From: a virus
Lineage: Duplodnaviria; Caudoviricetes
Strand: one strand, 5' to 3'
IMG/VR virus record: IMGVR_UViG_3300033075_000927
Span: 1 to 64,000 of that record
Length of the DNA stretch: 64,000 nucleotides
Shown one piece after another: positions 37-32,546 of the stretch. Under the pieces are notes generated by a model. It was not told the origin of the DNA. It did no database searches and saw only the letters and a list, made by a program, of their open reading frames with translations. The position numbers were made by a program, and so were the translations under genes. Each line of letters opens with the position of its first letter. The stretch's first letter is position 1.

Positions 37-45
37 TGACTCGCC

Positions 46-255
46 ATGCCTACGCTGTATGAAGACCTGGTAGCAGCAGACCAAGAGGTCTCCAACTGGC
101 AGTCAGACTTATACGTGCCTGCTACCGAGGAGGCGAAAGCTATCTTCCGCAAACACGGCCAGAAGTTGCTTTACTTCAAGAGCAACATAAACGGAAAGTT
201 TATGTTGGAGGCCTCATTCCAGTTCGACCCATTCTGGGAGAGGAGGGGCATGTGA
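46..255 (+). CDS. hypothetical phage protein (69 aa)
   Basis: ORF track; its stop overlaps the GTG of the next micro-ORF (GTGA). Confidence 0.7.
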   Translation: MPTLYEDLVAADQEVSNWQSDLYVPATEEAKAIFRKHGQKLLYFKSNINGKFMLEASFQFDPFWERRGM

Positions 256-598
256 CACCTTGTGGCTACGATGGGTCCAATTTCCAGTATATTGGCAGTA
301 GGTTCTACGCGCTGGACCTGTGGGGCGACCCCGACGTGGGTTACGATGACCAGAGTGAGATAGATAACGAGATCTACGTCAGCGTACCTCACCGCACCGA
401 CGTGAGACTTACACTATGACACCCTGTAGCTACGATGCCTGCAACTACCAACCAAGCCGGGAACCGTTTGCAGCCCTTGACCTGTGGATTTGCACAAATT
501 TTGCTGACCTGTCACACAGGTCAGCAATAGACAGCCATATCTACTGCCTTGTGGAGCGAGTAAGTCGTTCCATGTCCATACCTACCTGGTAACCAGCT

Positions 599-856
599 AT
601 GCCATACATCTTCCACGAACCAACCGGCGAAATCATTGACGACGACGGCCAAGTCATCGCCACTCTTTCTGACAATGCCCTGCCCGAGCAGGGCGAAGCA
701 CTTGTGAGGGCCTATAACAATGACGGCGAAGCTATGCGAAAAGTGTACTTGTCTGTGTGTCAGCGATATGCAGACGAACTACACAAGCATGAGCACGGCG
801 AGCCTCTTGCCAAAGTGGCTGAAGCTATTGCAAACGCGATAAAGGGCCTGACATGA
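599..856 (+). CDS. hypothetical protein (85 aa)
   Basis: ORF track; stop overlaps ATG 853. Confidence 0.7.
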   Translation: MPYIFHEPTGEIIDDDGQVIATLSDNALPEQGEALVRAYNNDGEAMRKVYLSVCQRYADELHKHEHGEPLAKVAEAIANAIKGLT

Positions 857-1229
857 CCAAACACCGCCTCATAAACCTCGCACTGGCCGCTACCTACGTC
901 GTAGCCAGTGTCGTTTTCCTACTAGACTTGCTCCTGTGGAGGCCGTGACGTGACACCATTTCGATATGACGGCTGCAACAATCAGAGCGGCACGCCAGGA
1001 CTCAATGTCTTCGACTACTCCCCAACGGCTTTCACGCTTGACCGTTATGTGTACGATCCGGTCAGAAACCTAAGAGTAGACGACTTTCTTTGGGACTTAA
1101 AATGAAACCCGCAGGCCTCAAAACAGGCCCAGACAACTGGGAGTCAGCGCCTAGCGCCCTGAAGCTGCTGTACATGAAAATATCGAAGTTCTACCAGTTG
1201 CATTTAGTGACTCAATTTTAGGAAATCAC

Positions 1230-1628
1230 ATGATCGAAAACGTCCAAATCAAGCACAGCATCAGCCGTGGCCGTGACACTTACGGCTACAACATCGTTAC
1301 AGCAGTCTGTAACGGCAAATCGTACCGCACCCTCGGAGGCGGCTACGACATGATCGGCACAGTGCTCGGTGACTGGTTCGAGTCTGAGCATCAAGATGAC
1401 CTGACAGCACTTGCCACGACGCTGACGCTGGAGCATTACGTCGGCACGACCAAGCGCCCTGCTAACGCCTTCTACGGCCTCTTTGTTCGTGCCGACAACT
1501 CCGTCTACATCGACGGCGCATGCGGCCTTAGCTGCGTGCTTGAGATTATCCGAGCCTGCGGCTACAAGACGCAGACCTGCTCCGACAGGAATGGCCGTAT
1601 CGAGTCGTTTTTGGTGTGGAAAGAGTGA
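1230..1628 (+). CDS. hypothetical phage protein (132 aa)
   Basis: Strong RBS (TTTAGGAAATCAC-ATG) and biased codon usage. Confidence 0.8.
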   Translation: MIENVQIKHSISRGRDTYGYNIVTAVCNGKSYRTLGGGYDMIGTVLGDWFESEHQDDLTALATTLTLEHYVGTTKRPANAFYGLFVRADNSVYIDGACGLSCVLEIIRACGYKTQTCSDRNGRIESFLVWKE

Positions 1629-1954
1629 CTCCAATACTCGCCGCACAGGCCACTCGGACGAATTGGCCCTACGACGAGTTCGAGGCGCTGCGCACCTGGC
1701 ACCCGTCAGACGCCTACACTTTGGTGGACCAAGGCGTCTACTACCCGATCTTCGAGGTCTGCGTTAAATTTAGTGGGTCTGTGGTGTGACATCAGTCCCA
1801 GTATCAACCACCACTCGCAGTAACTTCAGTACCCGCGCTTTCCGGGTACTACGCATATGGAAAGCAGATAGACCATATTATCAAGTTCACGACTGCTTCC
1901 ACGAGCTAATCCGTTTATCCTTTTCCATCAACCTGCAATTTTAAGGAAATCACT

Positions 1955-2218
1955 ATGCCTGACACAATTTACCTGCTATTTTACGACACAGACTCCGGCA
2001 GCCGAGAGGAGTGGAACACCTTCTACACCCCGTGTGAAGTTTTTCTATCAAGTGAAGACCGTGAGACTCGGGTCACTTACCTGAGCAATCTCTGTGATGA
2101 GGATGGTGACCCATATAGCTACATCTTTCACAAGATCAACTGTGCGCCAATCAGCGGCTCAGCTCTCACTGAGCCGCCAAGAGACGACTTGGACGAAGAA
2201 GACGAGATCGACTCCTAA
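1955..2218 (+). CDS. acidic hypothetical protein (87 aa)
   Basis: RBS TAAGGAAATCACT-ATG. Confidence 0.75.
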   Translation: MPDTIYLLFYDTDSGSREEWNTFYTPCEVFLSSEDRETRVTYLSNLCDEDGDPYSYIFHKINCAPISGSALTEPPRDDLDEEDEIDS

Positions 2219-2259
2219 CCACATAACGCCTCAACTCTAAATTTTAAGGAACTATTATC

Positions 2260-3279
2260 ATGTCAATGCCATTGAGCCAAGCCCTCAATAACGTTTTCGC
2301 ATGCCCTGCTACTACGTTTTTGCTCCTCGGTGCCCCCGGCGTAGGTAAGACTACTGCCACCATCAATGAAGCCCTGAGGCGTGGCAAGTACGTAATTAGA
2401 ACTGATTGCCAAAATATTCCGTCGGAAGATCTTGCCCGGCTGCCAGTTCTGAACAAGTCCAAAACTGCCATGACCTTTGCTATTCCAGAAATGTGGACAC
2501 CACGGCCTAATACCGTGATTGTCCTGGATGAGCTGCTGAAGGCTCCTGACGATACTGTCAACGCCTTTCTTCCACTGCTGCACGGCAAGCAGCTGTTTGG
2601 CCAGCAGTGGCCAGCTGACACCATCGTGGTCGTAACGTCAAACATTGCCGAATTTCGCGTAGGCGACAAGCTCCAGCCGCACGTCCTGAACCGCATGGTA
2701 AAGCTGGAGATTTCCGATCCGACAGCTTCCGAAGCCGAAGCGCTGATGCTGGACCTGGGCTTCGACAGTCGCATCATCCGCTGGACGCAGCAAGTACCGT
2801 CAGCACTGATCTCCTACAACGCTGATACGGCTTCCAAGCCTGATTCGGAGTTGGATTTTTACTTTGGTTACTCTCCACGTCAGCCTCGTGAGCCGTTCTG
2901 TAGTTTGCGGTCACTTCATACGGCTAGTATGCTGCTGCAAGCTGGCATTACCGACTCCGACACGCTGGCAGGCGCAATCGGCAAGAAGGCAGCGCACTCT
3001 TTGGCCTTGTACTGCAAGGAGATTCGGAGTTTCGTGCAGCCTGCCCATATCCTGGACGGTTCGGCCAAGGTACCGGACAATTTGTTTGATTGCAGAATGG
3101 CCAGCATTACAGCGGTGGCAATTATGACCCCAGATAACTGGGAGATCGTCCTCAATTACATTGAACGTCTGCCTGCCGAGATCCAGTCACTGGCTTGTCG
3201 GGCTGCGGCGAGGAAGTCTACTTTGAAGGGTCTGTGCCTGAATCGTCGCTGGAACAAGTGGGTGACTGCGAATTCTTGA
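2260..3279 (+). CDS. MoxR/dynein-like AAA+ ATPase
   Basis: Walker A GAPGVGKT, Walker B IVLDEL, sensor TSN and arginine-finger NR region; a vWA protein lies downstream. Confidence 0.8.
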   Translation: MSMPLSQALNNVFACPATTFLLLGAPGVGKTTATINEALRRGKYVIRTDCQNIPSEDLARLPVLNKSKTAMTFAIPEMWTPRPNTVIVLDELLKAPDDTVNAFLPLLHGKQLFGQQWPADTIVVVTSNIAEFRVGDKLQPHVLNRMVKLEISDPTASEAEALMLDLGFDSRIIRWTQQVPSALISYNADTASKPDSELDFYFGYSPRQPREPFCSLRSLHTASMLLQAGITDSDTLAGAIGKKAAHSLALYCKEIRSFVQPAHILDGSAKVPDNLFDCRMASITAVAIMTPDNWEIVLNYIERLPAEIQSLACRAAARKSTLKGLCLNRRWNKWVTANS

Positions 3280-3285
3280 GGGCGG

Positions 3286-3332
3286 TGGTATAATGCGAAT
3301 GCCCAGACAGCAGGCGAGCTGTCTGGGCATTC
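3286..3332 (+). promoter_or_regulatory. extended -10 promoter followed by a 14-bp perfect hairpin upstream of the HNH gene
   Basis: TGgTATAAT at 3286-3294; GAATGCCCAGACAG (3297-3310) pairs with CTGTCTGGGCATTC (3319-3332). Confidence 0.7.
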
Positions 3333-3361
3333 TACCCACCCACTGAAAAGGAGCTTCAGCG

Positions 3362-3961
3362 ATGGCTGAACATATTATACGTCAAGTTCCTCGTCCCGTT
3401 TCGAGGGCGCCTACTCAAAAACTTGAAAAGGTTTCTAAGCCTGAAAAGGTTTTTAAGCCCGTTGAGCCCCAAACCTTGACAGCAGAGTATCTGCGCTCGA
3501 TTTTGCATTACGACCAGGAAACTGGGGTCTTCACGAGGGTAGTCCGTACCTCCAACCGAATACAGGTAGGTGATACCGCAGGAAGCGTAAACGGTCAGGG
3601 GTACATTCACATACGGGTACTTGGTGTGCTGTACCCGGCACACCGATTAGTGTGGCTATACCTGCACGGTGAGTGGCCTAAGCATCAGATAGATCACGTA
3701 GACAGAGACAGGTTGAATAACCGGGCTGCGAATCTGAGAGAGGCGACCCAACAGCAAAACCTAAAGAACAAGGTGACCTACAGCAATAGCAAGTCAGGAC
3801 ACCCAGGAGTCCACTGGTATAGCCGCTACTCCAAGTGGCACGCCGAGATATCTAACAACCGGAAGAGAATAGACTTAGGCTACTACGACACTCTAGAAGA
3901 TGCCATCGCAGCCCGAAAAGCCGGCGAGCTGACGTATTGGGGCGCACACCGCTCCGACTGA
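3362..3961 (+). CDS. HNH endonuclease with AP2-like C-terminal DNA-binding domain
   Basis: AHRLVWLYLHGEWP..IDHVDRDRLNNRAANLREAT motif; C-terminal WHAEI..LGYYDTLEDAIAARK. Confidence 0.9.
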   Translation: MAEHIIRQVPRPVSRAPTQKLEKVSKPEKVFKPVEPQTLTAEYLRSILHYDQETGVFTRVVRTSNRIQVGDTAGSVNGQGYIHIRVLGVLYPAHRLVWLYLHGEWPKHQIDHVDRDRLNNRAANLREATQQQNLKNKVTYSNSKSGHPGVHWYSRYSKWHAEISNNRKRIDLGYYDTLEDAIAARKAGELTYWGAHRSD

Positions 3962-3981
3962 TCTAAACCATTTCTCAACCC

Positions 3982-4005
3982 AGCCCGCTAACGCGGGCTT
4001 TCTTT
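3982..4005 (+). terminator. intrinsic terminator
   Basis: AGCCCGC-TAAC-GCGGGCT followed by TTCTTT. Confidence 0.75.
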
Positions 4006-4040
4006 CACAACCTTCCTTTCAACCTTAATAGGAGTTCCAC

Positions 4041-4643
4041 ATGTCCAAAGAGTATGTTTTGAGCGATGAGCAACGTAGTCTCTTTCCTGCCTACGTGCAG
4101 AAATTTACTGCTCTCTGTTTGCACACGGTAGAGCCTGATGACAAATTTGACCATGAGTTTGCGATCAAAGCTACTAAGAATCTTTTTAAAATTGCTGGAA
4201 TTGAGCCTCCGAAGAACTTCTTTGTAGGTACGTGGCCAGAATGTGTGGCTGAAGCTCGTCGCATTAACACGGCTATTGACCGGGTAATTGACCCTAAAGC
4301 CCCAGAGAACAAGGAGGTGTCTAGTAGCCTGGGCTGGGGTCAGTTTAGTGCTGCCGCTGCTGGCTTTGCTGAGTTCTTTGTCAAGGAATTTGGAGCTGAT
4401 GAGCTGGCCGAAAAGTACCGCGTCATCATGGACGTTACTTTAGCTTCTGGCCCCACGCTGCTGTTCAATGAAGCGGCCTTCCTGTCTTACCATCCAACCG
4501 AGATCATCAAGGGTGAGAACGACTCCTTGACTCCAGTCTGGAACCAGCCAGCTGGTATCGGTGGCTGGGTGCAAGGTGATCCGCAAGAGCTGATCGACTT
4601 CTGCGTGGCCAACAAGCGCAAAGCCGCCAAGAAGCGTCGTTGA
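4041..4643 (+). CDS. hypothetical protein, DUF6745-like
   Basis: RBS AGGAG; N-terminus LSDEQRSLFPAYVQKF and a GQF..A..GF..FF segment resemble DUF6745 proteins as I recall them. Confidence 0.55.
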   Translation: MSKEYVLSDEQRSLFPAYVQKFTALCLHTVEPDDKFDHEFAIKATKNLFKIAGIEPPKNFFVGTWPECVAEARRINTAIDRVIDPKAPENKEVSSSLGWGQFSAAAAGFAEFFVKEFGADELAEKYRVIMDVTLASGPTLLFNEAAFLSYHPTEIIKGENDSLTPVWNQPAGIGGWVQGDPQELIDFCVANKRKAAKKRR

Positions 4644-4694
4644 TGATCGGGCCAGGGCACTTGACAGGTGCCCTGTCTCACAGGAGAACCTGTA

Positions 4695-5760
4695 ATGACC
4701 AACACAGCCGTCCACCTAGAAGCAGCTCTTGAGGACAGCCTGCCGTTCATCTACGAGCTTTGGATGTCGCTGGATGTAACGTTCAAGCTGAATCGAGAGG
4801 ACTTGCTATGACACCAGCGTATTTAGCAGTGGAGACTGTGGAGTTTTGCACCGACCTTTGTGACGAGCTGTACTGGACCCTCGACGAGGCCTGGAAGATA
4901 CAAGACCGGAACCTTCTATGACACCGACAAATATCCCGGTAATTGCTTCTCTACCTCACCACGCAGGACTGACGGTCTTCTACTCCCTGCACTACCGCAT
5001 GCTATACACCGTCCAGGAGTCGGTACCACCATGAACCCAACAGATTACGCTGAACTGACCCTGGATGCGATGGAATTTGACCTGGTGAACCACGCCAATG
5101 TAAGCTACGTTACGACCAACGAGACCATAGAGTCGATGCTTGGCATACCAGATCTTCCAGAAGCTGTCGAACTGTCTGTTATGGAGTTCAACTATGGCAC
5201 ATTTTAATCGACCTGTAAACAGCATGGAATTCTACTTCTACGGAAGGGAGACCTACACGAAACTTGGCAATGCGGGCCTGAGAAGGCTTGAAACAACGGG
5301 CTTCCAGCTGGCAAACTACTGGCGCTCAAAGCCTGAAGTGCCAGTATGACACCCTACCAATACATGCCAATAGGCACAGCCTACTACCTGATCTGCGCTA
5401 CCGACTTCAGTGAGTTGTCAGAAGCTGGCATGGCCGATCTCAAAGTCCTTGGCCAAAGACTGATATGGATAACTGCACCATGACCGCCTTCCACTTCTAT
5501 ATACCGCACTCAGCGATGTCAACCATAGCAATAAGCAAAGCAAGCCGCCACGTCTGGGATCAACTCGCAGACAACCTGCACAACCCCATCGTATGGCCGC
5601 TGCTGAATGCCTGCAGAGAATGACCGGCGTAAACCTAATAACTTTTGCTACCCCAAAAGCCGGTAGGCTCCGTGCAGTCGAATGGGAGGTATGGGAACAA
5701 CTACTGTACACAGTACATCACACAGCTTTCGATGTTACATACGGCATACGAACCTTCTAA
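4695..5760 (+). other. micro-ORF cluster B (8 microproteins)
   Basis: 4695-4811 (38 aa), 4808-4921 (37 aa MTPAYL), 4918-5034 (38 aa MTPTNI), 5031-5207 (58 aa), 5224-5349 (41 aa), 5346-5483 (45 aa MTPYQY), 5480-5623 (47 aa), 5620-5760 (46 aa). Six ATGA overlaps. Confidence 0.8.
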
Positions 5761-5882
5761 GCCTGCGCTACCTCATCTGGCCCATCTACACCATGAATAC
5801 CGGGTTCCCAACGTCTAACCTAGTATGGGCTACCCCACCCAGTAAACTCAGCCACCCACCAGGTAAATTTTTGGAGCAACAC

Positions 5883-7082
5883 ATGAAACAACATTTCGAC
5901 GTCCTCATCCGTCACCTGCCGCAAATTGAGCCCCTGCTGTTCGTGCAGCAGTTCACCATTCTCAGCCCAGAGACTTGGGACAAGAAGTTTGCGGGCACGC
6001 CCAACAAGACAGCTTGCTGCACGCCACAAGGATTCTGGTTTCATCAAGAGTTCTGGGGCAGCCTGCCCTTCAACAAGCAGGTAGGCTTGGTCCTGCACGA
6101 GGTGTTTCACGGAGCGCTGGGCCATCTCTCAGACCCATTCAAAGACTTCACCCTGCCACCGCACACCTTTCAGCAACTGGCAAACATCGCCCAAGACATC
6201 GTCATCGAAAACGCCATCTACGAGCTGGCCAACAAAATCCAAACTGGTCGCTCGCTGGAGAAGCGCGACATTGCCCAACAGTACGACCCGCAGATCTTCC
6301 TGCCCTACGCTGGCATGTCTTGGCGGCAGGTGTACGAGGCGCTGCGCAGCCAGATGAAGCAGCAGGGCCAAGGTCAGGGCACTGGGCCAGTCTGCGACCT
6401 CTCTCAAGCCCGTGGCCAAGAGGACAGCACCTCCAGCGAGGTTGCCCAGCGCTGGGAAGCCGCCCGGCAGGAATCGGAGGCCATCAAGGAGCGCGTCCGC
6501 AACCAGGGCAACTCCGGCTCCGGCCAGACCATCGACATTGCTCCAGAGCAGGCTGTGATCCCCTGGCAGACCTACCTGATCAACTACCTCGTGTCGGCCC
6601 CCTGGCCGGTGCGCAAACAGTGGAGCAACATCAAGCGCCGCCCGTTCACTCAGTCTGGCGCCTACGTGCCCAAGCTCGGCGGTCAGTCCAACGTATTACC
6701 CATCGTCAACCTGTTCCTGGACACCTCTGGTTCCATGTCAGGCGACTACGGTGACCTGGCCGCTGAAGTCATGTCCATCTGCTCGATGGCCAAGAAGGTG
6801 ATGCGGGTGGATTACGATGTGGGTGTCGCCTATCAGGAGCTGATCGAAGACCCTGAAGACTACGTCATCACGCAACTGCACGGTGGTGGCGGCACTTGCT
6901 TCCAGACGGCGCTGAACCAGATGCTTGAAGACCGGGACTTCAACCGCGACGCTCCGGTCGTTGTGCTCACGGACGGCGGAGACTCCTACGACGTAGGCCA
7001 CCTTGGTGTACCCTGCGTCTTCGTCAGCTACGGCTGCAACTTCACATCTGATGCTGGCCCAGTGTTCATGGTGAAGAAGTGA
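5883..7082 (+). CDS. HExxH metallopeptidase-like plus vWA domain protein (DUF2201-type)
   Basis: LHEVFHGALGH motif; C-terminal vWA with MIDAS elements DTSGSM, GGGT and TDG. Start set at MKQHF behind GGAG. Confidence 0.8.
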   Translation: MKQHFDVLIRHLPQIEPLLFVQQFTILSPETWDKKFAGTPNKTACCTPQGFWFHQEFWGSLPFNKQVGLVLHEVFHGALGHLSDPFKDFTLPPHTFQQLANIAQDIVIENAIYELANKIQTGRSLEKRDIAQQYDPQIFLPYAGMSWRQVYEALRSQMKQQGQGQGTGPVCDLSQARGQEDSTSSEVAQRWEAARQESEAIKERVRNQGNSGSGQTIDIAPEQAVIPWQTYLINYLVSAPWPVRKQWSNIKRRPFTQSGAYVPKLGGQSNVLPIVNLFLDTSGSMSGDYGDLAAEVMSICSMAKKVMRVDYDVGVAYQELIEDPEDYVITQLHGGGGTCFQTALNQMLEDRDFNRDAPVVVLTDGGDSYDVGHLGVPCVFVSYGCNFTSDAGPVFMVKK

Positions 7083-7993
7083 CACCAGCCGACCACATTG
7101 TTCGCCAATGTCATATGTATATGACATTGGACGTAGGCTTCAACTGCAGGTACCGAGTGGCAGCGCAGTTGAATCTTAAAGTCTATACTGATGCTGTCGA
7201 GCAGATGGTCAGAAAGGTGTTTAAGGTATGACGAACTCTCTAGGCTCAGCTAGATGGCTGTACAGTTACCTAGTGCATTCTGTATGCAGAGACGTGAGGC
7301 GGGACATGCACGACTCGCTGTTCAAGCCAATTCACACACCTGCCATATCTCGCCTAATAGGCTCGCTGTTAAGCGAGGAGTAAGCATGACATTGACTGAA
7401 AAACCAGAATTAATTACTCCGTGGCAATTTGTCATCGGGCAGATGTCAAAAGGGCAAGGGCCGGGCTTCATAAGCCTGTACCTTAAGCTGTGCCCACCTG
7501 CCGGAGCTAGAGTCATCGGAAGCCTTCTTTTAGACCTATGACCAACCTACCCTACCAAGGCCTGCCGTCATGGCCAGCGTACCTGGAACCAGAGATGCTG
7601 CGCTGCCACTTCGTTGTGGCGGAGTTTATTCAGGTCGCCGTAGCTGCAACCAGATTGCACCACTCAACTTATGGAGCGCTGAGGTGACACCATCTAACCT
7701 ACCTCCAAACGGCGGAGTAAAGGAGATATTTACTCTAACTCAAGGGCAGTCCGCACTCACAGCCCGACTCTTCTATGAACTATTCGGCCTGAGCATTAAG
7801 ATTCACAACACCTTACTGAAGGAAATTTATGGAATCAAACATCATTGACGTGCCGGACCTCGGTCTGACGCTACGCACTCTGCTTGCCATTGCAGATACT
7901 AGGCTCAAGTCCACTGGCCACAAGACTTACCGCATCAGGTACAAGCACATGATCATCGGTTCAGTCAAAGTTCGGCACCAAGAGCCGAGGTAA
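7079..7993 (+). other. micro-ORF cluster C (6 microproteins)
   Basis: 7079-7231 (50 aa MTPADH), 7228-7383 (51 aa), 7386-7541 (51 aa), 7538-7687 (49 aa), 7684-7848 (54 aa MTPSNL), 7829-7993 (54 aa). Confidence 0.8.
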
Positions 7994-7998
7994 GTCAC

Positions 7999-8667
7999 AT
8001 GCGCTACTTCTTCACCCTCACTTCCAGTAACGCCAAAACTGGCAACATCCCGCAGGTCTACGCTCAGCGCAGCACCTGCCCGCCAAGTTGTATCCACTAC
8101 GGCACCACCTGCTATGCGGAGGGCTTCTACACCGCCCTTAATTGGCGCAAGGCGGACACCGGCATCACGTTGGCTGAGCTGTGCGACAAAATCTCCAGCC
8201 TGCCTCGCTACCAGCTCTGGCGCTACGCAGTGGCTGGAGACCTGCCGGGGCAGGGTGAGGCTGTCGATTCAGAGGCGCTGATGCACATCGCGGCGGCCAA
8301 TTACAGTAAGCTGGGCTTCGGCTTCACACACAAGCGGTCTGATGAGGCCCTGGCCGCAGCCCGTAAAGCAACGGCTGCCGGGTTCACAATCAACGTGTCC
8401 GCAGACGGGCTGGCCGACCTTGACCAGCTGCATGCTCGCGGGGCCTGGCCACTGGTCGTCACGCTGCCATCCGATTCGCCGCGCCGCCTGACCTCGCCAG
8501 CTGGCCTGCCGGTGGCCATTTGCCCGGCCCAGGTCATGGACACGAACTGCGACCGCTGCCGCCTCTGCGCCCGGCCCGAGCGCAAGGTGGTGGTCGGCTT
8601 CTTGGCCCACGGCAACCGCAAGGTTCGACTTGATGGGCGACTTCGGGCGATGGTGGAGGGCATATGA
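7999..8667 (+). CDS. Cys-rich phage protein, GP88-like (possible Fe-S/radical-SAM-like fold)
   Basis: NAKTG..TCPPSC....TCYA, WRYAVAGD and C-terminal CPAQ....CDRCRLC motifs. Confidence 0.5.
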   Translation: MRYFFTLTSSNAKTGNIPQVYAQRSTCPPSCIHYGTTCYAEGFYTALNWRKADTGITLAELCDKISSLPRYQLWRYAVAGDLPGQGEAVDSEALMHIAAANYSKLGFGFTHKRSDEALAAARKATAAGFTINVSADGLADLDQLHARGAWPLVVTLPSDSPRRLTSPAGLPVAICPAQVMDTNCDRCRLCARPERKVVVGFLAHGNRKVRLDGRLRAMVEGI

Positions 8668-10675
8668 ACACCTATGAAACCTGGGAGCTAGGAAATCCGG
8701 CTTGGCTTCTGGATTTCAGCCAGTGCAGAAAGCTTGATGCTGCTCTCTTGGCGGTGCCGGGCACGAGGCTTCTACGGGCAGTACGTGAGGGCCTGAAAAC
8801 ATGACACCTCGATGCTACGAGATCGGTGAGTTCATGCTGTGCCAGCTCTACGGAGCGTGGCCTATTGCAGACCCTCACGGCGTAAAGCTGCGGGAACTAT
8901 CTGAGTATCTCTTGCTGAATGTAAGAGATCCAGCAAGGTTCGGTGTCGATGTTTTTGGGTGGGTAGAGCAATGAACGCAGCTTCACTACCATTTGAAGAC
9001 GCGCGTAGCGATGACACATTCTGGCACGGGCACGAATGCTGCCAACTTCAGGAGGCTATAGTGGCTGGTGTTCCGCATATGTTTTACCAAGTCTTAGACC
9101 CGCTGTGGGATTATGAGGAGGCTATGTGAATCCTGTTAGTTTAGTTAGATGGCATTACTTAGATTGGTATTCAGGCTGGCAGACCTATAACGAAGCGTCT
9201 GTAGTCTTCTCTCTTCGAGAAGGCATACCTAACCTAAACGGCCTACGTCATCCTAGGCAATGGTTAGCATGGGGCTCACAATGACACCAAGAGACGTAGC
9301 ATTAGCGTACATGCAGATACTGTTTAAATACGGAGGGTGGCAGGAGCTCAACGTAGAGCCCCTAACGGAGGCTCTGATTGAACTACCAGATCCGTCTAGA
9401 GGCTGGAGCATGGAAGAGTGGGCCGAACCATGACACCTGCCTACATAAAATTTCGCACATACACCGAGTGCTTCCCCGGTGGCGGGGATGCCTACAGGCG
9501 CGTAAGATACGAGATGTTTGTGGTTTTTGGACTATCGGCGGATTGCCGGAGGAATCTATGACACCCTACAAGACACTCGACCCGTCAGACTTGGCTCTGA
9601 GACTGGGCAATGGCCATGCACACAGGGATGTGGACCTGGAGTTCTGGGCCCTATACTCACTGGCTTTTGGACTGAGAGACCAGCTATGACACCACTGCCA
9701 AGACTAATCCACTACATGCACCTGTATTACTTCCCACGCGGAAGCCAACATCATGTGTTCGTAGCCATGTCAAACGTACCTCACTACCTGCGCAACACGC
9801 TAAAAGCAGACAGGTTGGTGAACCTATGACTGACGTAGACAGCAAAGTCTTCCACTTTACAGGCATGCCATTCACATCGGAAGGCCTGTGGCCAATGCGA
9901 TTAGCCATCCGCGACGGTGTCCCGTCCTACAAAATCCGCGAGTACATTTACACGGAGCTGGAAGCATGACACAAGCAGCGAAACTGTATCGGCTGCAAGT
10001 TCTTGGGCACCTCGGTGACCGGCCCCACGAGCTATTCTCAACCCTGCTGGACTTACCGGGACCCGAACTACAGCACACATTGCAGAAAGGGCTTCGAGCA
10101 TGACACCTCAACTACAGTTGATCCGACTTCAGCAGGTAGGCTCCATTGGAGGGACTTGCGAGTGGGCACTGCTCAGGCAATTCTGCATGATACCGGAACA
10201 TCTAATCCTCCTTGAAGTCAGAAGGATTTGTCACACATGACACCCGCATACACCGCCACAAGCTTCAGCTACTCTGCCAGGATCACCGTGCATAAGTTGC
10301 TTCAGCCATTCCGGCTGGCCCTGGTAGAAGGCACAGGGCAGTACCAATGCCGCGCCCATCTTCGCGGAGGACTTGACGAATGACACCTAGATCAGCAGCC
10401 ATCAGCAACTTCTGCTACCTGCCCTTCCACCAGGGCCTGTACGACCTTGACAGTCCTGAACTGCGCTTGGCCCTGTACCGCATCATCTACAATCCGCGCA
10501 CAACCGTAAAGATCCTGCTATGACCAGCACCCCGCACCTTATCGACCACTGGTTCTGGCTGCCCAGGGTGCTGCCTTGGCAAGGCTTCTACCTGAGAGAG
10601 TTGCAGAAGAAGCTTAGCCTGGTCCACAGGCCACGGTCAGGCAAAATAAATTTCACGCTGTACCAATACCTGTGA
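8664..10675 (+). other. micro-ORF array D (14 consecutive translationally coupled microproteins, 43-57 aa)
   Basis: Starts at 8664, 8801, 8971, 9126, 9281, 9430, 9558, 9686, 9826, 9966, 10100, 10237, 10380, 10520. Every start overlaps the previous stop by exactly 4 nt; eight begin MTP. Confidence 0.88.
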
Positions 10676-10681
10676 TACAAT
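10652..10681 (+). promoter_or_regulatory. sigma70-like promoter
   Basis: TTCACG-18 nt-TACAAT with an extended TG at 10673-10674. Confidence 0.55.
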
Positions 10682-10725
10682 AGCTCCGCTACCGCAGCAA
10701 ATCAACCCACCACCAAGGAATCACC

Positions 10726-11058
10726 ATGACCATCCGCTCCATCCCCAAACCAACCATCGTCCGTACCACCGTCGGTGCCCTGGACTCCACCTTCGCAGCT
10801 CTGCGCCCCGCTACTGACGACTGCCACTTCGAGACCGTTGCTGCCGACAGCACTGTCGAAAAAGTGCGCAACAAGTTGTCGAGCGCCATCAACTCCTACC
10901 GCGTTCGCACTGGTGACAAGTCAGCCTTCTCGATCCGCGTGATCGAGGGCGGCGTGGACGGTATGGAAGCCGTTGGCGTCTGGAAAGAAGACAAGGAATT
11001 CACGCCACGCCCCAAGAAGGTTGTGGCTGAAGTTGCGGCTGAAGTTACCGAAGCCTGA
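10726..11058 (+). CDS. hypothetical protein (110 aa)
   Basis: RBS AAGGAATCACC-ATG and highly biased codons. Confidence 0.8.
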   Translation: MTIRSIPKPTIVRTTVGALDSTFAALRPATDDCHFETVAADSTVEKVRNKLSSAINSYRVRTGDKSAFSIRVIEGGVDGMEAVGVWKEDKEFTPRPKKVVAEVAAEVTEA

Positions 11059-11127
11059 TCAGCAACACCTCACAGCCAACCGACTGCGTAAAACCAGTCG
11101 GTTTTTTATCGCCTACAATTTACCAAA

Positions 11128-11325
11128 ATGTTCAAAATCTTCAGAACTCCGAACTTCACTGATGTTGTCGAAAAGCAACTCGAAACAGCCAAACTGAACT
11201 TGCTCGATGCTGAGAGCGCCTTCGAGATGGCCGCTGCCCGCCTGCAGATGGCACGCACCACTGTGACACGCCTATCCAACCACCCAGCCATTGCAAAAGC
11301 CGTCGCACGAAAGGAAGAGGGATGA
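11128..11325 (+). CDS. small coiled-coil hypothetical protein (65 aa)
   Basis: ORF track; stop overlaps ATG 11322. Confidence 0.7.
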   Translation: MFKIFRTPNFTDVVEKQLETAKLNLLDAESAFEMAAARLQMARTTVTRLSNHPAIAKAVARKEEG

Positions 11326-11420
11326 CTCCTGAGCTTGTTCAGGCCGTCGGCCAGTACATCGTGATCCCTATTTGCGCTGCGGCAGGTGTCGTGGCTTTCT
11401 TTTGGTTTATCAAAGGTTGA
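11322..11420 (+). CDS. MTP-start membrane micropeptide (32 aa)
   Basis: MTPELVQAVGQYIVIPICAAAGVVAFFWFIKG; ATGA overlap; one hydrophobic helix. Confidence 0.65.
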   Translation: MTPELVQAVGQYIVIPICAAAGVVAFFWFIKG

Positions 11421-11427
11421 TTCAACA

Positions 11428-11919
11428 ATGAGCCGTTACGCAGACATCAAACCCGGAAGCTTGAAACACAAGATCCTCAAGACCTTGGCATCGCCAGACT
11501 ACCTGACCGCCGAGCAAGTCGTGGAGGCCGTCAAGTCCGATGGAACCAGAATCAAAGCCGACGCTGTGCATCACATGCACCTGCGCCCCATGATGACAGC
11601 CGGGCTCGTCTCTGGTGTGCAAACTACTTGGGGCGACTCGGTCGAGATGTACGAGTGGACCTACACTCTCACACTCGACGGCAGGCTCGAACTGCGGGAG
11701 CTTGACGACGAGCTGGCAGGCAAGCCGAAGGAAGGCTTGGTGCCACCCCGTAAAACGCCCATCTCGAAGGAGAACTACGCTGGCGACGAGCTGAAACGCC
11801 TGCCAGGCCTGCCCGCTGACCGCTACGCCGCCTTCGATCTGCCCAGCGTTGCACTTGGATGGCGCGAGTGGCCAAAACACTTGCGAGGCGAGAAGCCGCG
11901 TGAGAAGGTGGAGCTGTGA
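11428..11919 (+). CDS. hypothetical protein, possible winged-helix DNA-binding protein
   Basis: KILKTLASPDYLTAEQVVEAV..HHMHLRPMMTAGLV resembles a wHTH; start moved to MSRYAD. Confidence 0.55.
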   Translation: MSRYADIKPGSLKHKILKTLASPDYLTAEQVVEAVKSDGTRIKADAVHHMHLRPMMTAGLVSGVQTTWGDSVEMYEWTYTLTLDGRLELRELDDELAGKPKEGLVPPRKTPISKENYAGDELKRLPGLPADRYAAFDLPSVALGWREWPKHLRGEKPREKVEL

Positions 11920-13462
11920 CAGAGGTAGGGTTCCTTCTCAGGGGCGGCAGCTCAGTGCCTGCAATTTACGGCATACATGGCGTGATGTCGATCAGCCAGC
12001 GGCTCAAGACCTGGGCCATTCTTTCGGCAGACGGGAGGTTCAGGTGAACGCCGTTGGATTCCGAATCCGGGTTATTCGGATGTATGACGATGTCAGTGGT
12101 ATCACCAGGCATGACGTAAGCACAGGACTTGCTAGGGTCTACGACTGTAACCAGCCGCTGGCAATCTACATATTCCACTACACCAGAAACCTATGACACC
12201 AGTACGCATAGACGAACAGAGGCTAGTGAACTACTGGGCGCACGACGTGTCAAGTTATCTTAGCAGTGCGGCCTACACTGCTGGAATGGTTGGCTTGGCT
12301 ATAAGGGGCTACCTATGACACCTGTCTGGATAGCTGAAAGGCCCTTAGTCGGCTTCTGGCACCACCGGGTAAGCCAGCACCTGGTGGATGTGGTCAATGT
12401 GACCTATAGGATCGCTTCAGCAGTAAGGAACGTATGACACCAGTACAAATCATGGAAAGAGAACTTGTAGGGGTCTACAAGCACACTGCAAGACTGGGGC
12501 TCGGCCCTCTGTCCGACATGGAGGTCAAGTGCTGCGAATCCGTTGCGACGGGCTGTGACACATGACCGCAGTAGACATTAACGAGCATGAGATGGTTGGA
12601 GCTGGACGCTGCCGGGTGAGAGCCGGGCTGGAGCAACTGTTCGAGGTCGGGTTCCAGGCTGCCATCTCTTTAGCGGAGTACCTATGACACCAGTATACCT
12701 ATGACACCAGTGTACCTATGACACCAGTATACATAAATGATCGAGGACTTATCCCAGTGTACGACGGTGACGAGGAAGTGTACGATTCCCTGCACGACCT
12801 CGCACTCGTTGAAGGTAAGGTAGCTGAAGGTGCAACTACATGGCTGGAATCAACATGACACCAACCAAAATAAGCACCCCGAGGCACCTCGTAAGGTGGT
12901 ACAACTACGAGGCTTTGCAGATAAGTAAAAGCTTAGGAAGGTTGGCAAGGCTAGAACTTCATTTAAGGCTATCACAACACCAATCTGTAAGATGACTTCT
13001 GTAGACCAAAGACGAATCCAGCTGCACCATTGGATGACACCTCTACCGATGTGCTCGTGGATAGTGATGAGCTGCTTGAGCATAGCAGAGACTTTCACCC
13101 TGCAAAAGTGGGCATTAAGGAGTTCAGATGACTGAGGCAGAGCTACCCAGAGAAGGCGTAATAACCACGCTGCGGTCTCACATACACCCTAACTTTGAGG
13201 TGCGTAGAGCTGTATACTCTAAAATACCTCAATCGTGGCGGTTGGCTCACTGGTGCCACGTCCAATACGAGCAGCTGACATGACACCAGCAACCTTACTA
13301 AACCCTCAAGGCAAGGTCGCAGAGCCTTGGAATAGGGTAGGCGTACACGCCTTCGACGTTGACCCGTACTCAGATGCGGCGATCATGTTTTACAACCTGC
13401 GGGCCGAGATCGAGCAAGTCCTGGGTGGCAGCTTACGCTACGTGTTGAGGAGGTTTATGTAA
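11916..13462 (+). other. micro-ORF array E (11 microproteins plus 2 hexapeptide units)
   Basis: Starts at 11916, 12044, 12193, 12315, 12434, 12562, 12684 (6 aa), 12701 (6 aa), 12718, 12855, 12992, 13128, 13280. All are 4-nt RTGA overlaps except 13128 (8 nt). Confidence 0.87.
12680..12730 (+). repeat. 17-bp tandem repeat x3 (ACCTATGACACCAGTRT)
   Basis: Direct reading: ACCTATGACACCAGTAT / ACCTATGACACCAGTGT / ACCTATGACACCAGTAT. Confidence 0.95.
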
Positions 13463-13500
13463 CTTCAGGCAAGAATCGACCCACTACCACACCTACCAAC

Positions 13501-13917
13501 ATGAAAAGAAAAAACCTCAACCTCACCCCAGTCGAACGCGCCGTGGCCTACGCCAAGTTCAGCAAGATGCTGACTTCGGCTCACCTACAAGCCCTGATCG
13601 GTGGCGACATGAACAAGGTGCTGGACAGCGTCTGCACCTTGCTCTTCATCGCAGCCGCCGCCGCGCACCATGCTGACATCCTGGACGCTGATGTCAAGAT
13701 CATTCACGGCGCGTGCCGGGCCTCCGTGCAGGCATGCTCCGAAGAGCGTCTGACGGACTTGCACCGTGGAGCCCTCGAATCCGGCCTGCTGGCCATTGAG
13801 CGGCTGCGGCCAAGACTGCCGGTGCCAGCCCTGGTGCTGGCCTCGACAGAAGTGTCCCTCCTGATCCGCCAAGGTGGCGTATACTGGAAGGACTTTCAAA
13901 AATATGTGCCGGAGTAA
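13501..13917 (+). CDS. hypothetical protein (138 aa)
   Basis: ORF track; GC-rich coding bias. Confidence 0.75.
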   Translation: MKRKNLNLTPVERAVAYAKFSKMLTSAHLQALIGGDMNKVLDSVCTLLFIAAAAAHHADILDADVKIIHGACRASVQACSEERLTDLHRGALESGLLAIERLRPRLPVPALVLASTEVSLLIRQGGVYWKDFQKYVPE

Positions 13918-13920
13918 TTT

Positions 13921-14216
13921 ATGACACCAGCCGCGAACGCAACTGAATTAGTGCAAGACTTTGTAGATCAAAACAATTACACTAAGCTAGAAGTTGCCTG
14001 GAGCCTGCGGCCTGCATGCACCAGCCAGATGATTGGCTTCACCAGAGGCTCAGTGTCTGTGGGTGAATGGCCATGACAGAAGCTGGAATCCATGTACGTG
14101 ACCTAAATGTAGGTGAGCTAAACTGCCAGAACACCTACTACATCATAGAAAGTTTAATAACCCAGCCAGCAGCACCTCTGCTGTGGTTGTTTCACTCAGT
14201 GACACCACAACCATGA
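13921..14216 (+). other. micro-ORF pair F
   Basis: 13921-14076 (51 aa MTPAAN) and 14073-14216 (47 aa MTEAGI), ATGA overlap. Confidence 0.7.
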
Positions 14217-14222
14217 AAGACT

Positions 14223-14603
14223 ATGAACTCAAAAGACTTCCTCAACTCGCTACCTCCAATCTATTGGAGTGCCAAGCACCCCAGCACTTACGTCTTTCTC
14301 AACAACATGCGACCGGCTGGCATCGGGCTGCTCGCCCCGGCTGAGCCCGGAGCCTGGAACCTGATTCACGACAAGTTCGACTGGGGTACACTCGCCGGCC
14401 ACCAGCAAGCCGTGACGTGGTGGTCGTTCCTCAAGTCGGCGCTCAAGGTGCAGGTGCAGGGCTACCCGCTCGACGAGACTGTCGTCTTCCTAGGGCCGCA
14501 CAAGTGGCCAGAGTGGTGGGCCGCCAACCGAAACGCAGCTCCGCTCACCGCCCGGCTGCATATCGACAACGTGATGGCACTTGGTGCCGTGAAGGAGGGG
14601 TGA
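14223..14603 (+). CDS. hypothetical protein (126 aa)
   Basis: ORF track; coding bias. Confidence 0.7.
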   Translation: MNSKDFLNSLPPIYWSAKHPSTYVFLNNMRPAGIGLLAPAEPGAWNLIHDKFDWGTLAGHQQAVTWWSFLKSALKVQVQGYPLDETVVFLGPHKWPEWWAANRNAAPLTARLHIDNVMALGAVKEG

Positions 14604-16295: not shown

Positions 16296-16820
16296 ATGCA
16301 CCATCAATTCCAGACCCCGTCACGGGGCGCGACCCAGACAGACCACCTTGCCCTTGAACGCCAGTTCAGCAACACGGCAGCAGAACACCTCCCAGACGAC
16401 CACCTCCGCGAATTCCACAGCGGCCACTACACGGTCAAGGTGAGCCTCTGCCCCAAGAAGAAGCTGTACCTGTTCCAGGCGTCTGCCGGGCGGCCCACCA
16501 ATTTGCAGGTCATCCAGCTGCTGGACACCGACTTCACGTTGGACGAGGGCTTCAGCCTTGAAGTCGGCGGCTTCCCTGCCCCAGAAACCACTCGCCTGTT
16601 CGACCACTCGCCGCGCCGTCTGGCTCCAGGTGTCTTCATGTGGCTGCCGCGCTTCACGATGGTAGAGCGGTACATCTACCAGGGCATGCCGAAGTCGCGC
16701 GTCGGTGTTGTGATCCGTTCCACGCACAGTCCAGAACGGCAGCTGGTGGACGGTAAGTGGTACCTAGTTGACGCGCGAAGACTTGACCTTATTGATCCGA
16801 CTCTGACACAACGCTACTGA
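16296..16820 (+). CDS. hypothetical protein (174 aa)
   Basis: ORF track; fills the helicase-primase gap on the sense strand. Confidence 0.65.
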   Translation: MHHQFQTPSRGATQTDHLALERQFSNTAAEHLPDDHLREFHSGHYTVKVSLCPKKKLYLFQASAGRPTNLQVIQLLDTDFTLDEGFSLEVGGFPAPETTRLFDHSPRRLAPGVFMWLPRFTMVERYIYQGMPKSRVGVVIRSTHSPERQLVDGKWYLVDARRLDLIDPTLTQRY

Positions 16821-16830
16821 GGCTCTGCAC

Positions 16831-19749: not shown

Positions 19750-19756
19750 AGTCTGC

Positions 19757-19782
19757 TGTACCACCTAAAACGGTGGTACAAT
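19757..19782 (+). promoter_or_regulatory. extended -10 promoter overlapped by a 9-bp inverted repeat (possible operator)
   Basis: TGTACCACC-TAAAAC-GGTGGTACA; TGgTACAAT at 19774-19782. Confidence 0.55.
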
Positions 19783-19850
19783 ACCAAAACCCCGCAAGTG
19801 GTTACTTGCTGACAAGTCGGAAAGAACGGCTAACACTGAAAGCTAAAATC

Positions 19851-31771: not shown

Positions 31772-31974
31772 TAGCCTACTGCACCAACTGCCGGCACTAC
31801 CAGCCTCCGGCAAAGTCACACGGGGCTGGCCAGTGTCTGGCAGTATCCTTGCCCGCCATCACCGCCAGGGCTCAGGCCTGCGGCACCTTCGGCCACCTGT
31901 TTGAGGCAGCTCCTTTGCACGCTGCGCACCCAAGGATGGTAAAAGGGCCAACAAAGAAGAGGAAATCACCGTGA
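31753..31974 (+). CDS. small Cys-rich protein (73 aa)
   Basis: CTNCRHY..C..C. Confidence 0.55.
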   Translation: MAHSKVIAYCTNCRHYQPPAKSHGAGQCLAVSLPAITARAQACGTFGHLFEAAPLHAAHPRMVKGPTKKRKSP

Positions 31975-32546
31975 ACAGCGTATCGCCACACAGTTACTTC
32001 GCCTACCCGGAAGCCTTCGTACCTGGAGCTGCCATGCTCGTCAATGCAGCATTTGCCACTGTGGGCTGGGGCATCAGTGACCAGACGCTTGGCTTATGAC
32101 ACCGGCTACTGAGCCTGTTGAGCAGTGCAACTGCGCATCCTACTATCTGTCGTACCACCCAGACACGATTACGCTTGTGTTCAGAATCATCCGACCGGTT
32201 ACCCGCATCAGACCCGCCAGAGAGCGACTACTACCATGACACCTTCATTCGATACCTCCACACTTTACTGCCAAACAATAAAAACTACTGTGCATGGGTG
32301 GGTGTACGTTTCGCGTGAGTTCAGAGACGTAGGCCGTAACATCGTGCCGCTGATCGGACTTGTGCTGTGACACCAGCCTACTCCGTAACTAGCCAGAGCT
32401 ACAGCTCACACTACATACAGTATCCGCTAGATGGCTGCGACGCGCAGGCGCTGGTGTATGCAGGCATACGAGAAGTGTTCTTGAAATCACCATTAAGATG
32501 GACTTTACTACAATGGCACCAGCCCACTTCAGCCTCGGCTGTTTAA
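31971..32546 (+). other. micro-ORF cluster G (4 microproteins)
   Basis: 31971-32099 (42 aa), 32096-32239 (47 aa MTPATE), 32236-32370 (44 aa MTPSFD), 32367-32546 (59 aa MTPAYS); all RTGA overlaps. Confidence 0.8.

Follow-up and report, generated by a model that had tools for sequence, protein, structure and literature searches.

How do phages gain, lose and still express tiny orphan early genes? This old question is raised by a 64-kb stretch of viral DNA (hereafter the window), the first part of the 78,403-bp IMG/VR virus record IMGVR_UViG_3300033075_000927. The gaps between its larger early genes are filled by 53 real, back-to-back genes of 31-60 codons. Many of these small open reading frames (ORFs), here called micro-ORFs, begin with the octamer RTGACACC (R being A or G): its TGA would end one cassette, the overlapping RTG would start the next and ACA-CCN would encode Thr-Pro. 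The 53 micro-ORFs are accessory genes in hyper-variable cassette arrays of the early plus-strand operon of an uncultured siphovirus of ~78 kb. As for the octamer, we think it fairly probable (about 0.6), judging from sequence comparison, that it is a cassette joint optimised for translational restart, which also serves as the site of cassette gain and loss. The proline at residue 3 (Pro3) of the products is left over by this reading.

The interest of the locus is that one 8-base joint can be traced through graded relatives as the end of a gene and the start of the next, with conservation at the nucleotide level and with gain or loss of cassettes exactly at their boundaries. As a natural case of shuffled gene modules it is a clean one. 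It makes testable, on a short segment of DNA, the relay of translation over up to 14 micro-genes, the effect of codons 2 and 3 on restart, and the exchange of cassettes through short homology. The presence of Pro3 in micro-proteins only could point to a rule for the stability or recognition of microproteins. There is also a lesson for annotation: ORF filters of at least 60 amino acids miss ~10% of the genome.

Census and coding status of the micro-ORFs

The census consisted of a greedy chain of plus-strand ORFs and scripted counts. It covered ORFs of 31-60 amino acids between 1 and 14.3 kb and at 32 kb, which form the arrays A to G and the coupled pair described in the last section. The count of 53 ORFs, with a total of 7,710 bp, agrees with the 53 ORFs and ~7.7 kb given in a preliminary description of this DNA. 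An RTGA start is found in 50 of the 53, and 45 overlap the stop codon of the preceding chained ORF, where 46 overlaps had been claimed. Products starting with Met-Thr number 42 and those starting with Met-Thr-Pro (MTP) 27, close to the 44 and 28 listed before.

Are these frames genes? Training on 28 long genes gave a codon model that recovered the true frame in 99% of their 50-codon windows. With stop codons ignored, the model placed the claimed frame best of six in 29 of 49 micro-ORFs (about 8 expected by chance), and it did so for none of 109 shadow ORFs within long genes. The GC content at the three codon positions follows the order seen in long genes (GC1>GC2<GC3) in weaker form. Pairing of the Shine-Dalgarno (SD) type upstream of the starts averages -4.7 kcal/mol, compared with -2.75 kcal/mol at random positions (p = 5e-4), and values of -6 or lower are reached in only 29%. 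Divergence was measured against a contig of ~86% identity, L041. The pooled ratio of non-synonymous to synonymous substitution rates (dN/dS) of 15 orthologous micro-ORFs is 0.40 (bootstrap 95% confidence interval 0.28-0.55), a figure that is biased downward because orthologs below 45% identity were left out; four large genes gave 0.07. Individual micro-ORFs range from 0.02 to ~1.2. The ORF that starts at 5031 (ORFs and cassettes are named by their first position) has 31 homologous clusters in assemblies from ENA, NCBI, JGI and Logan, and 19 columns of the alignment are invariant. Furthermore, the gene calls stored with related contigs, from many metagenomes, list the same micro-ORFs independently.

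Some signals pull the other way. Codon adaptation is weak (GC3 0.59, compared with 0.71 in long genes), 20 of the 49 micro-ORFs do not score best in their own frame, and dN/dS comes near 1 for some of them (4918, 5480). Judged by codon usage and divergence taken together, the micro-ORFs are nevertheless real, fast-evolving orphan genes rather than artefacts. Searches with Pfam and PHROGs profiles, for which the default threshold for a match was 0.001, gave only two marginal single hits among the 53 micro-proteins, to phrog_2625 (E = 0.004) and HTH_27 (E = 0.002). By analogy with the early ORFan regions of other phages, the products are probably dispensable accessories of host takeover or anti-defence.

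A tandem paralogous multigene family or a single superfamily was considered and is not supported. Taken as one superfamily, the 53 sequences have a mean column identity of 10%, and only small local paralog families were found; of 227 micro-proteins from nine loci, 152 are singletons at E < 1e-3 once the first three residues are removed. The AlphaFold2 model of the 5031 family is all-helical with a confidence score (pLDDT) of 58, too poor for a structure search. In composition, the micro-proteins differ from the large genes in Tyr (5.1 vs 2.9%), Trp (2.5 vs 1.6%), His (3.6 vs 2.3%) and Lys (2.6 vs 5.5%).

The RTGACACC joint and the level of its conservation

RTGACACC occurs 30 times on the plus strand of the window and twice on the minus strand; for the whole 78.4-kb record the counts are 31 and two. 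Markov simulations of order 1 and 2 predict 2.7-2.8 +/- 1.6 copies with a maximum of 9, while backgrounds above order 2 absorb the motif itself. This count on both strands had been suggested as a check in the preliminary description, and its outcome (30 and two copies against ~2.7) favours the proposal made there. Neither a background explanation nor an enrichment in unrelated phages, which the same description had set against its own idea, was found. Away from start codons TGACACC stays at background, with seven copies on each strand. A Chi-like oriented site was rejected because the enrichment is confined to start codons. In the information profile, conservation ends sharply outside the 8 nt, and beyond them only a weak SD-like run of G near -10 is visible.

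The joint is restricted to the small genes. In genes of at least 63 amino acids neither ACACC nor Pro at residue 3 occurs (0/50 for each), whereas Pro3 is found in 31 of the 53 micro-ORFs (p = 2.5e-12). Large genes with an RTGA overlap start favour ATGAGC, which encodes Ser. The earlier statement that the octamer recurs through the clusters and not at the starts of large core genes is therefore correct. Copies away from ordinary starts lie at 12684 and 12701 (6 codons), at 14199 (5 codons) and at 13034, within the ORF at 12992. IMG/VR was also searched for triplets of ATGACACC with spacings of 119-149 nt; the 27 matches are all in-frame or non-coding tandem repeats, and none is a micro-ORF array.

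Other roles for the octamer were examined and dropped. A hairpin between the SD sequence and CACC finds an upstream GGTG at only two joints by inspection. Stop-codon recoding or read-through would yield no extended frame, since the upstream frame meets its next stop at a median of 10 codons past the TGA. Frameshift fusion to polyproteins would need a slippery sequence ahead of the joints, and inspection revealed none. A phage-encoded tRNA for ACA was ruled out, as the 64-kb window is without tRNA genes.

Is the joint conserved as DNA or as protein? The preliminary description had posed this alternative and had noted a preference for ACA, which is real: ACA is the Thr codon in 25 of the 27 MTP starts and makes up 19% of the Thr codons of the genome (p = 2e-16). 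It is codon 2 in 30 of the 50 RTGA starts and is associated with a following Pro codon (Fisher p = 1e-4), for which all four Pro codons occur at MTP starts. Orthologous joints were compared between the window and L041, L043, L044 and L045. In 13 MTP joints, which cover only 8 distinct joints because several of these relatives share ancestry, the Thr wobble changed in none, the Pro wobble in eight, and the start codon switched between A and G in four. At Met-Thr starts without Pro, by comparison, the Thr wobble changed in three of five. Synonymous sites elsewhere are far from frozen, with a synonymous divergence (dS) of ~0.46. The difference between 0/13 and 3/5 places the A at +6 under nucleotide-level purifying selection in this lineage.

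Pro3 follows another pattern. It is invariant in the 32-member alignment of ORF-5031 orthologs, in which N, T, I or S stands at residue 2. Paralogs in the more distant contig L046 retain Pro3 with T, K or R at residue 2, and their Thr codons ACA, ACG and ACC all precede CC. In the contigs L050 and L051 Pro3 persists even at starts without a stop overlap (for example MQP, MYP and MNP). Across eight related contigs it is found in 22-75% of micro-ORFs, and while residue 2 drifts through T, N, K, I and S across the clade, Pro3 stays. It thus behaves as a protein-level (or CC-level) constraint across the clade would, and it is a class mark of the micro-ORFs.

How far does the joint extend beyond this genome? 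Relatives were reached through homologs of the HExxH/VWA protein encoded between arrays B and C, and L053 and L055 through the ORF-5031 family. Samples containing such contigs include ERZ15185815, ERZ15186016, SRR27827406 and JGI Ga0208916. The same MTP/ACACC joint is used by L041 and L043-L045 (VWA-protein identity 84-95%) and by L053 and L055 (~80-88% nucleotide identity to the window), with seven ACACC joint copies in 6.5 kb of L041 and 12 on the plus strand and none on the minus strand in 12 kb of L055. At 50% VWA-protein identity, L046 has 17-20 MTP starts among 27-32 micro-ORFs; L050 (56%) uses MTP, MNP, MKP, MQP and MYP starts, and L051 and L040 (58-59%) mainly MNP (ATGAACCC). L042 and L052 (36-40%) start with RTGA[AG]ACT, which encodes M-K/R-L. 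Joints of the more distant relatives accordingly read AACCC or AAACT. The controls, namely phage JWF, 27 unrelated IMG/VR loci and four distant DUF7227 loci, showed no dominant 5-mer context, and M-x-P made up 0-7% of their RTGA-coupled candidates. From the starts of graded relatives and the controls, we conclude that micro-gene arrays are a trait of the whole group and that the joint is a lineage-specific 'dialect'; only the clade of the window has the Pro3 signature together with the frozen wobble. The genome-scale 'programme' of the preliminary description thus stands as far as the arrays go, and falls short in universality, as distant relatives use other joints. In L042:1300-3800 and L052:9000-11900 the M-K-L and M-R-L micro-proteins consist of repeated W-D-x-V / D-Q-V-W units; these repeat proteins are a separate micro-gene family with its own joint, RTGA[AG]ACT.

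Cassette turnover, translational restart and rival explanations

Turnover was read from alignments of L041, L053, L055, L043/44 and L045 to the window, several of which share ancestry; breakpoints were approximated by the ends of high-scoring segment pairs unless the sequences were read directly. Most structural differences in the arrays amount to between one and five cassettes gained, lost or replaced. A gene start is no more than 13 nt away at 17 of the 32 unique breakpoints, where 16.7% are expected (p = 2.6e-6). In array C the relatives show insertions or deletions (indels) of one to four cassettes exactly at 7079, 7386 and 7684. Array D carries three block indels in three relatives (8801/9558 in L041, 9430/9686 in L053 and 9281/9558 in L055), whose flanks, read at the nucleotide level, are joined inside RTGACACC. 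A two-cassette indel in array E (12047/12316) is joint-exact in comparison with L041. The same relative holds two extra single cassettes, each flanked by RTGAC[AG]CC, and in L055 the N-terminal half of cassette 9686 is duplicated at the 8971 joint.

Within the window, positions 12684..12734 on the plus strand hold three 17-bp units, two of which are 6-codon 'empty cassettes' (MTPVYL-stop) in front of the full cassette 12718. This triple repeat may have arisen by slippage or unequal exchange at the joint. In L053 a gene for an HNH endonuclease (L053:15915-16597) is inserted in array D directly after the joint that corresponds to window position 10237. It is closest to a gene at 74.4-75.1 kb of the record (~78% nucleotide identity), and the pattern suggests homing of HNH endonucleases into the arrays. 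Deletion also occurs elsewhere: L041:4588-4758 shows a deletion with TGGCC microhomology (window 9621/10468) that yields a 56-residue fusion ORF, composed of the N-terminal part of 9558, a stretch of 10380 read out of frame and all of 10520. Since cassettes are fused or removed by this event, individual cassettes are dispensable.

What would the joint do for expression? Sites resembling sigma-70 promoters are at chance level (9 found, 8.4 expected) with none at joints, and the only convincing terminators in the first 15 kb lie at 3982-3999 and 11078-11103; the arrays are therefore placed within long polycistronic units. The -4 overlap is the classical architecture of coupling by termination and reinitiation, in which the second codon must begin with A (PMC12548453). 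ACA motifs are reported to enhance translation, and the same paper cites activity of CA repeats even downstream of the start codon (PMC3879156). In the window, the predicted unpaired probability is 0.63 at +3..+7 and 0.40 in ORF interiors, the ACACC stretch comes out as the least paired part of the start region, and the start regions of MTP genes are predicted to be more open overall (p = 0.0015). On the restart reading, a ribosome that ends one cassette would start again on the next at the -4 overlap, and translation of a polycistronic early mRNA with few promoters would thereby be maintained. The G-free, ACA/CA-rich and unpaired stretch past the start codon would improve this restart. With short joints that are identical, and with intact coupling under selection, cassette-exact recombination could become the commonest event among surviving rearrangements. 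Since many boundaries share one joint, and since the relay survives only events that are joint-exact, the joint would also mark gain and loss. Each of the three options in the preliminary description draws some support; termination and reinitiation would fit the 4-nt overlaps, the SD-like tails and the unpaired CA-rich start, and the frozen wobble speaks for selection on the nucleotides.

Several observations count against this reading. SD strength is alike at MTP joints and other starts, so compensation of a weak SD by the motif had to be discarded. The work on ACA enhancers was done on mRNAs of enterobacteria, and most of the positions it deals with precede the start (PMC3879156). Six of the 17 joint-coincident breakpoints lie at joints without the M-x-P motif, approximately the share of such joints, and imprecise indels with other microhomologies are seen at 5303/5451, 9621/10468 and 5177/5837. 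Because of these two findings, the joints are boundaries of surviving rearrangements and not proof that ACACC promotes exchange; selection for intact coupling could give the same breakpoint pattern. Finally, CC at +7/+8 and Pro3 are inseparable by sequence alone, and the Pro3 signature is not explained by a restart joint.

Pro3 is the strength of an account in which Met-x-Pro is selected at the protein level as an N-terminal peptide tag. Methionine aminopeptidase is not known to act where the second residue is followed by Pro, and X-Pro bonds withstand general aminopeptidases. A tag could be a 'proline shield' against aminopeptidase trimming and Met excision of short, poorly folded proteins, or else a recognition mark for a partner, and ACACC would merely be the preferred encoding of Met-x-Pro in this lineage. 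The invariance of Pro3 next to a variable residue 2 in the 32-member family, its retention in the L046 paralogs and at the non-overlapping starts of L050 and L051, its confinement to micro-ORFs (31/53, 0/50 in larger genes) and the use of every one of the four Pro codons would all fit, and to this extent the tag proposed in the preliminary description finds backing; its separation from a constraint on CC does not. Yet the frozen Thr wobble (0/13) stays unexplained, 22 of the 53 micro-ORFs are without Pro3, and distant relatives of the same genome layout start M-K-L or M-R-L. Exposure of the N-terminus cannot be read from the low-confidence model (pLDDT 58) of one family. As the main driver, a tag seems to us doubtful. 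A combined version, in which Met-x-Pro is an address label for a dedicated handling pathway and the joint is restart signal, label and exchange point at once, is a long shot; the MoxR-type ATPase and the HExxH/VWA (DUF2201) protein among the arrays would be its candidate handlers. We are as sceptical of the octamer being primarily a recombination anchor as we are of the tag as main driver; on the anchor account it is kept as a substrate for short-homology or enzyme-guided cassette exchange, which would reduce the 'short conserved boundary sequence' model to its minimum. The three independent block indels with crossovers within RTGACACC, the extra cassettes flanked by direct motif copies, the 17-bp tandem of empty joints, the enrichment of breakpoints at joints and the HNH endonuclease genes in or beside arrays (one right after the 10237 joint in L053) speak for it. 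However, homologous recombination usually needs far more than 8 nt, joints that lack the motif break in proportion to their share, and the same breakpoints are predicted by selection for intact stop/start coupling. A crossover in the motif does not homogenise it, so that the frozen wobble would require second-order selection for evolvability. The anchor, listed as an option in the preliminary description, has support from cassette-exact change at the joints (17/32, with three in-motif crossovers), a pattern that selection for intact coupling could equally produce.

Descent from one founder by tandem duplication would make MTP/ACACC the slowest-diverging remnant, without function, and is in our view quite improbable. 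Local paralog families are indeed most alike at the N-terminus (252/416/950, 12193-12718 and 10237/32367), relatives hold young tandem families such as four 40-residue copies in L046, and the other joints of distant relatives are tied to one repeat-protein family. A mere relic would hardly go together with the 152 singletons among 227 micro-proteins, with a Thr wobble that never changes in orthologs while the Pro wobble does, despite a dS of ~0.46, or with the abrupt end of conservation after 8 nt. The octamer could also be an operator, a start context bound by a phage translational repressor, small RNA or sequence-specific RNase that would silence all micro-genes at once, as RegA and RegB act on T4 early mRNAs. 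The pattern of an exact, strand-specific 8-mer at about half of the early micro-gene starts with nucleotide-level constraint would suit such a site; no candidate factor was found, about half of the micro-ORFs are without the motif, related lineages have different joints, and we give the idea very little weight. Least credible of all is chance or background codon bias at ATGA overlaps. Although the -4 overlap limits the second codon to ANN (PMC12548453), of which Thr takes 4/16, such a bias is refuted by the Markov counts (31 copies, ~2.7 expected), by ACA usage (merely 19% of Thr codons) and by control loci without a dominant context; overlapped large genes, moreover, favour AGC.

Comparable systems, array layout and source genome

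The nearest described system is that of the promoter-early stem-loop (PeSL) cassettes in the hyperplastic regions of T4-type phages (Arbiol et al. 2010, PMC2839356; Comeau et al. 2014, PMC4122927), which represents the same biology with another joint. In both, small early ORFan genes are clustered between core genes and flanked by a short repeated motif that bounds insertions, deletions and replacements between close relatives. The PeSL is a non-coding sigma-70 promoter with a terminator stem-loop, whereas the window joint is an 8-nt coding overlap of stop and start without promoter, hairpin or flanking conservation. PeSL genes are transcribed individually, while those of the window would be chained translationally, and no mini-circles are known from the window. 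Short conserved boundary (linker) sequences were likewise proposed long ago for module exchange, and a review notes that most mosaic boundaries show none (PMC3029335). The window resembles that model in having a short conserved sequence between unrelated genes: the motif is common to 27 joints, and most cassette bodies are without detectable mutual similarity. Three block indels and two single-cassette indels map into or between motif copies; joints without the motif break equally often, and a mechanism acting on the motif is inseparable from selection in this pattern. Unlike mosaic boundaries in general, these joints are closely packed (about one per 140 bp), span no more than 8 nt, and act both as start context and as N-terminal codons.

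Translational coupling at -4 (ATGA) overlaps (PMC12548453) shares with the window the 4-nt overlap on one strand, the SD sequence inside the upstream ORF and a second codon that begins with A. Known cases are pairs or short runs, often of subunits of one complex, in contrast to up to 14 unrelated genes of 40-60 codons here; in addition, five nucleotides past the start codon (ACACC, four of them beyond the overlap) are fixed, which the overlap does not require. ACA/CA-rich enhancers (Yang, Figueroa-Bossi and Bossi 2014, PMC3879156) also place ACA in an unstructured, G-poor initiation region, but those tested lie mostly upstream of the SD sequence in Salmonella mRNAs, and the ACA of the window follows the start codon. 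In the jumbo phages G and 121Q, numerous small genes that resemble one another stand in tandem (Hua et al. 2017, PMC5646251). They have in common with the window the head-to-tail arrangement of tiny orphan genes that are gained and lost between relatives; their copies are described as very similar, whereas the cassettes of the window are mostly mutually unrecognisable. Particular to the window joint are its minimal and fully coding form (8 nt), one frozen wobble and the restriction of Pro3 to micro-proteins.

All arrays lie on the plus strand. Array A (252..1221) is an ORF chain with the micro-ORFs 252-419, 416-592, 853-948, 950-1105 and 1102-1221, a larger 85-residue member at 599-856 and RTGACACC joints at 252, 416 and 950. 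The ORFs at these three joints are paralogs (BLASTP E = 2e-8 and 4e-3), and the relative L053 has no counterpart of the DNA that holds cassettes 252 and 416. A coupled pair follows at 1625..1944, of which 1625-1789 starts with GTGACTCC (MTP) and is joined by 1786-1944; together with an 87-residue ORF at 1955-2218 it is missing from L053 and L055. Array B (4640..5760) comprises the micro-ORFs 4808-4921, 4918-5034, 5031-5207, 5224-5349, 5346-5483, 5480-5623 and 5620-5760, with ATGACACC joints at 4808, 4918 and 5346 and ATGAACCC at 5031. Its orthologs are found in L041 and L043-L045 (dN/dS 0.06-1.2). Array C (7079..7993) has six micro-ORFs with GTGACACC joints at 7079 and 7684.

Array D (8664..10675) is a chain of 14 micro-ORFs of 43-57 amino acids, with ATGACACC joints at 8801, 9281, 9430, 9558, 9686, 10100, 10237 and 10380. 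About 11 micro-ORFs make up array E (11916..13462), among them the paralog family 12193, 12315, 12434, 12562 and 12718; its ATGACACC joints are at 12193, 12315, 12434, 12718, 12855 and 13280. Array F (13921..14344) consists of 13921-14076 (ATGACACC), 14073-14216 and 14213-14344, the last with a weak coding score. Array G (31971..32546), with four micro-ORFs and joints at 32096, 32236 and 32367, is flanked by a gene for a 332-residue protein (30552-31550) and the gene of an SMC/SbcC-like ATPase (32653-34656). Its ORF 32367 is paralogous to ORF 10237 of array D (E = 3e-4). Another small array, again with starts that read MTP, lies outside the window at 72497-73302 of the record, on the plus strand upstream of the record end, with the joints ATGACTCC at 72497 and ATGACACC at 73144.

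The record is rated complete. Its final 73 nt (78331-78403) duplicate window positions 40-112, and positions 1-35 are a remnant of an Illumina TruSeq adapter with a 100% match to 15 unrelated phage records; it appears to be an assembly with a circular overlap, from which the adapter had not been trimmed. The 69-residue ORF at 46-255 is probably the continuation from the end of the record. The large genes assign the source to the siphoviruses. On the minus strand, 34.7-64 kb hold structural genes including a 2,541-residue tape-measure protein and a GpA-type large terminase. The plus strand carries a long replication/early operon with an AAA (MoxR-like) ATPase, an HNH endonuclease, the DUF2201 HExxH/VWA protein, DUF7227, an SNF2 helicase, a primase, a family-A DNA polymerase and the SMC/SbcC-like ATPase. 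The terminase is at most 26% identical to those of Vibrio SHOU24-like phages and Achromobacter phage JWF. Cultured phages are all distant, with only 21-27% identity for the nearest. In a megablast search against phage records the sole DNA match was the adapter remnant, and IMG/VR yielded no close relatives when searched through the AAA ATPase, the SNF2 helicase and the ORF-5031 family.

The HExxH/VWA gene, which served as marker for finding relatives, sits between arrays B and C on the plus strand (5883..7082 within the ORF 5682-7082) and matches Pfam DUF2201_N and DUF2201. Its start is probably near 5883, because the homologs are 394-419 amino acids long; such a start leaves space for one more micro-ORF upstream. 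As H72, E73, H76, D280, S282 and S284 are invariant in 20 homologs, the metallopeptidase motif and the MIDAS-like (metal ion-dependent adhesion site) motif both look intact.

Other mobile or duplicated genes accompany the arrays. HNH endonuclease paralogs of phrog_99 are encoded at 3362-3961 of the window and at 74.4-75.1 kb of the record. The early region of L052 (74.8 kb) contains IS605 OrfB/TnpB (Cas12f-like) genes and a resolvase (1-445, 16704-17402 and 18247-20058). L045:1-1351 holds two copies of the 200-residue gene located at 4041-4643 in the window (85% and 72% nucleotide identity); two micro-ORFs lie between the copies, and cassettes unrelated to those of the window come after.

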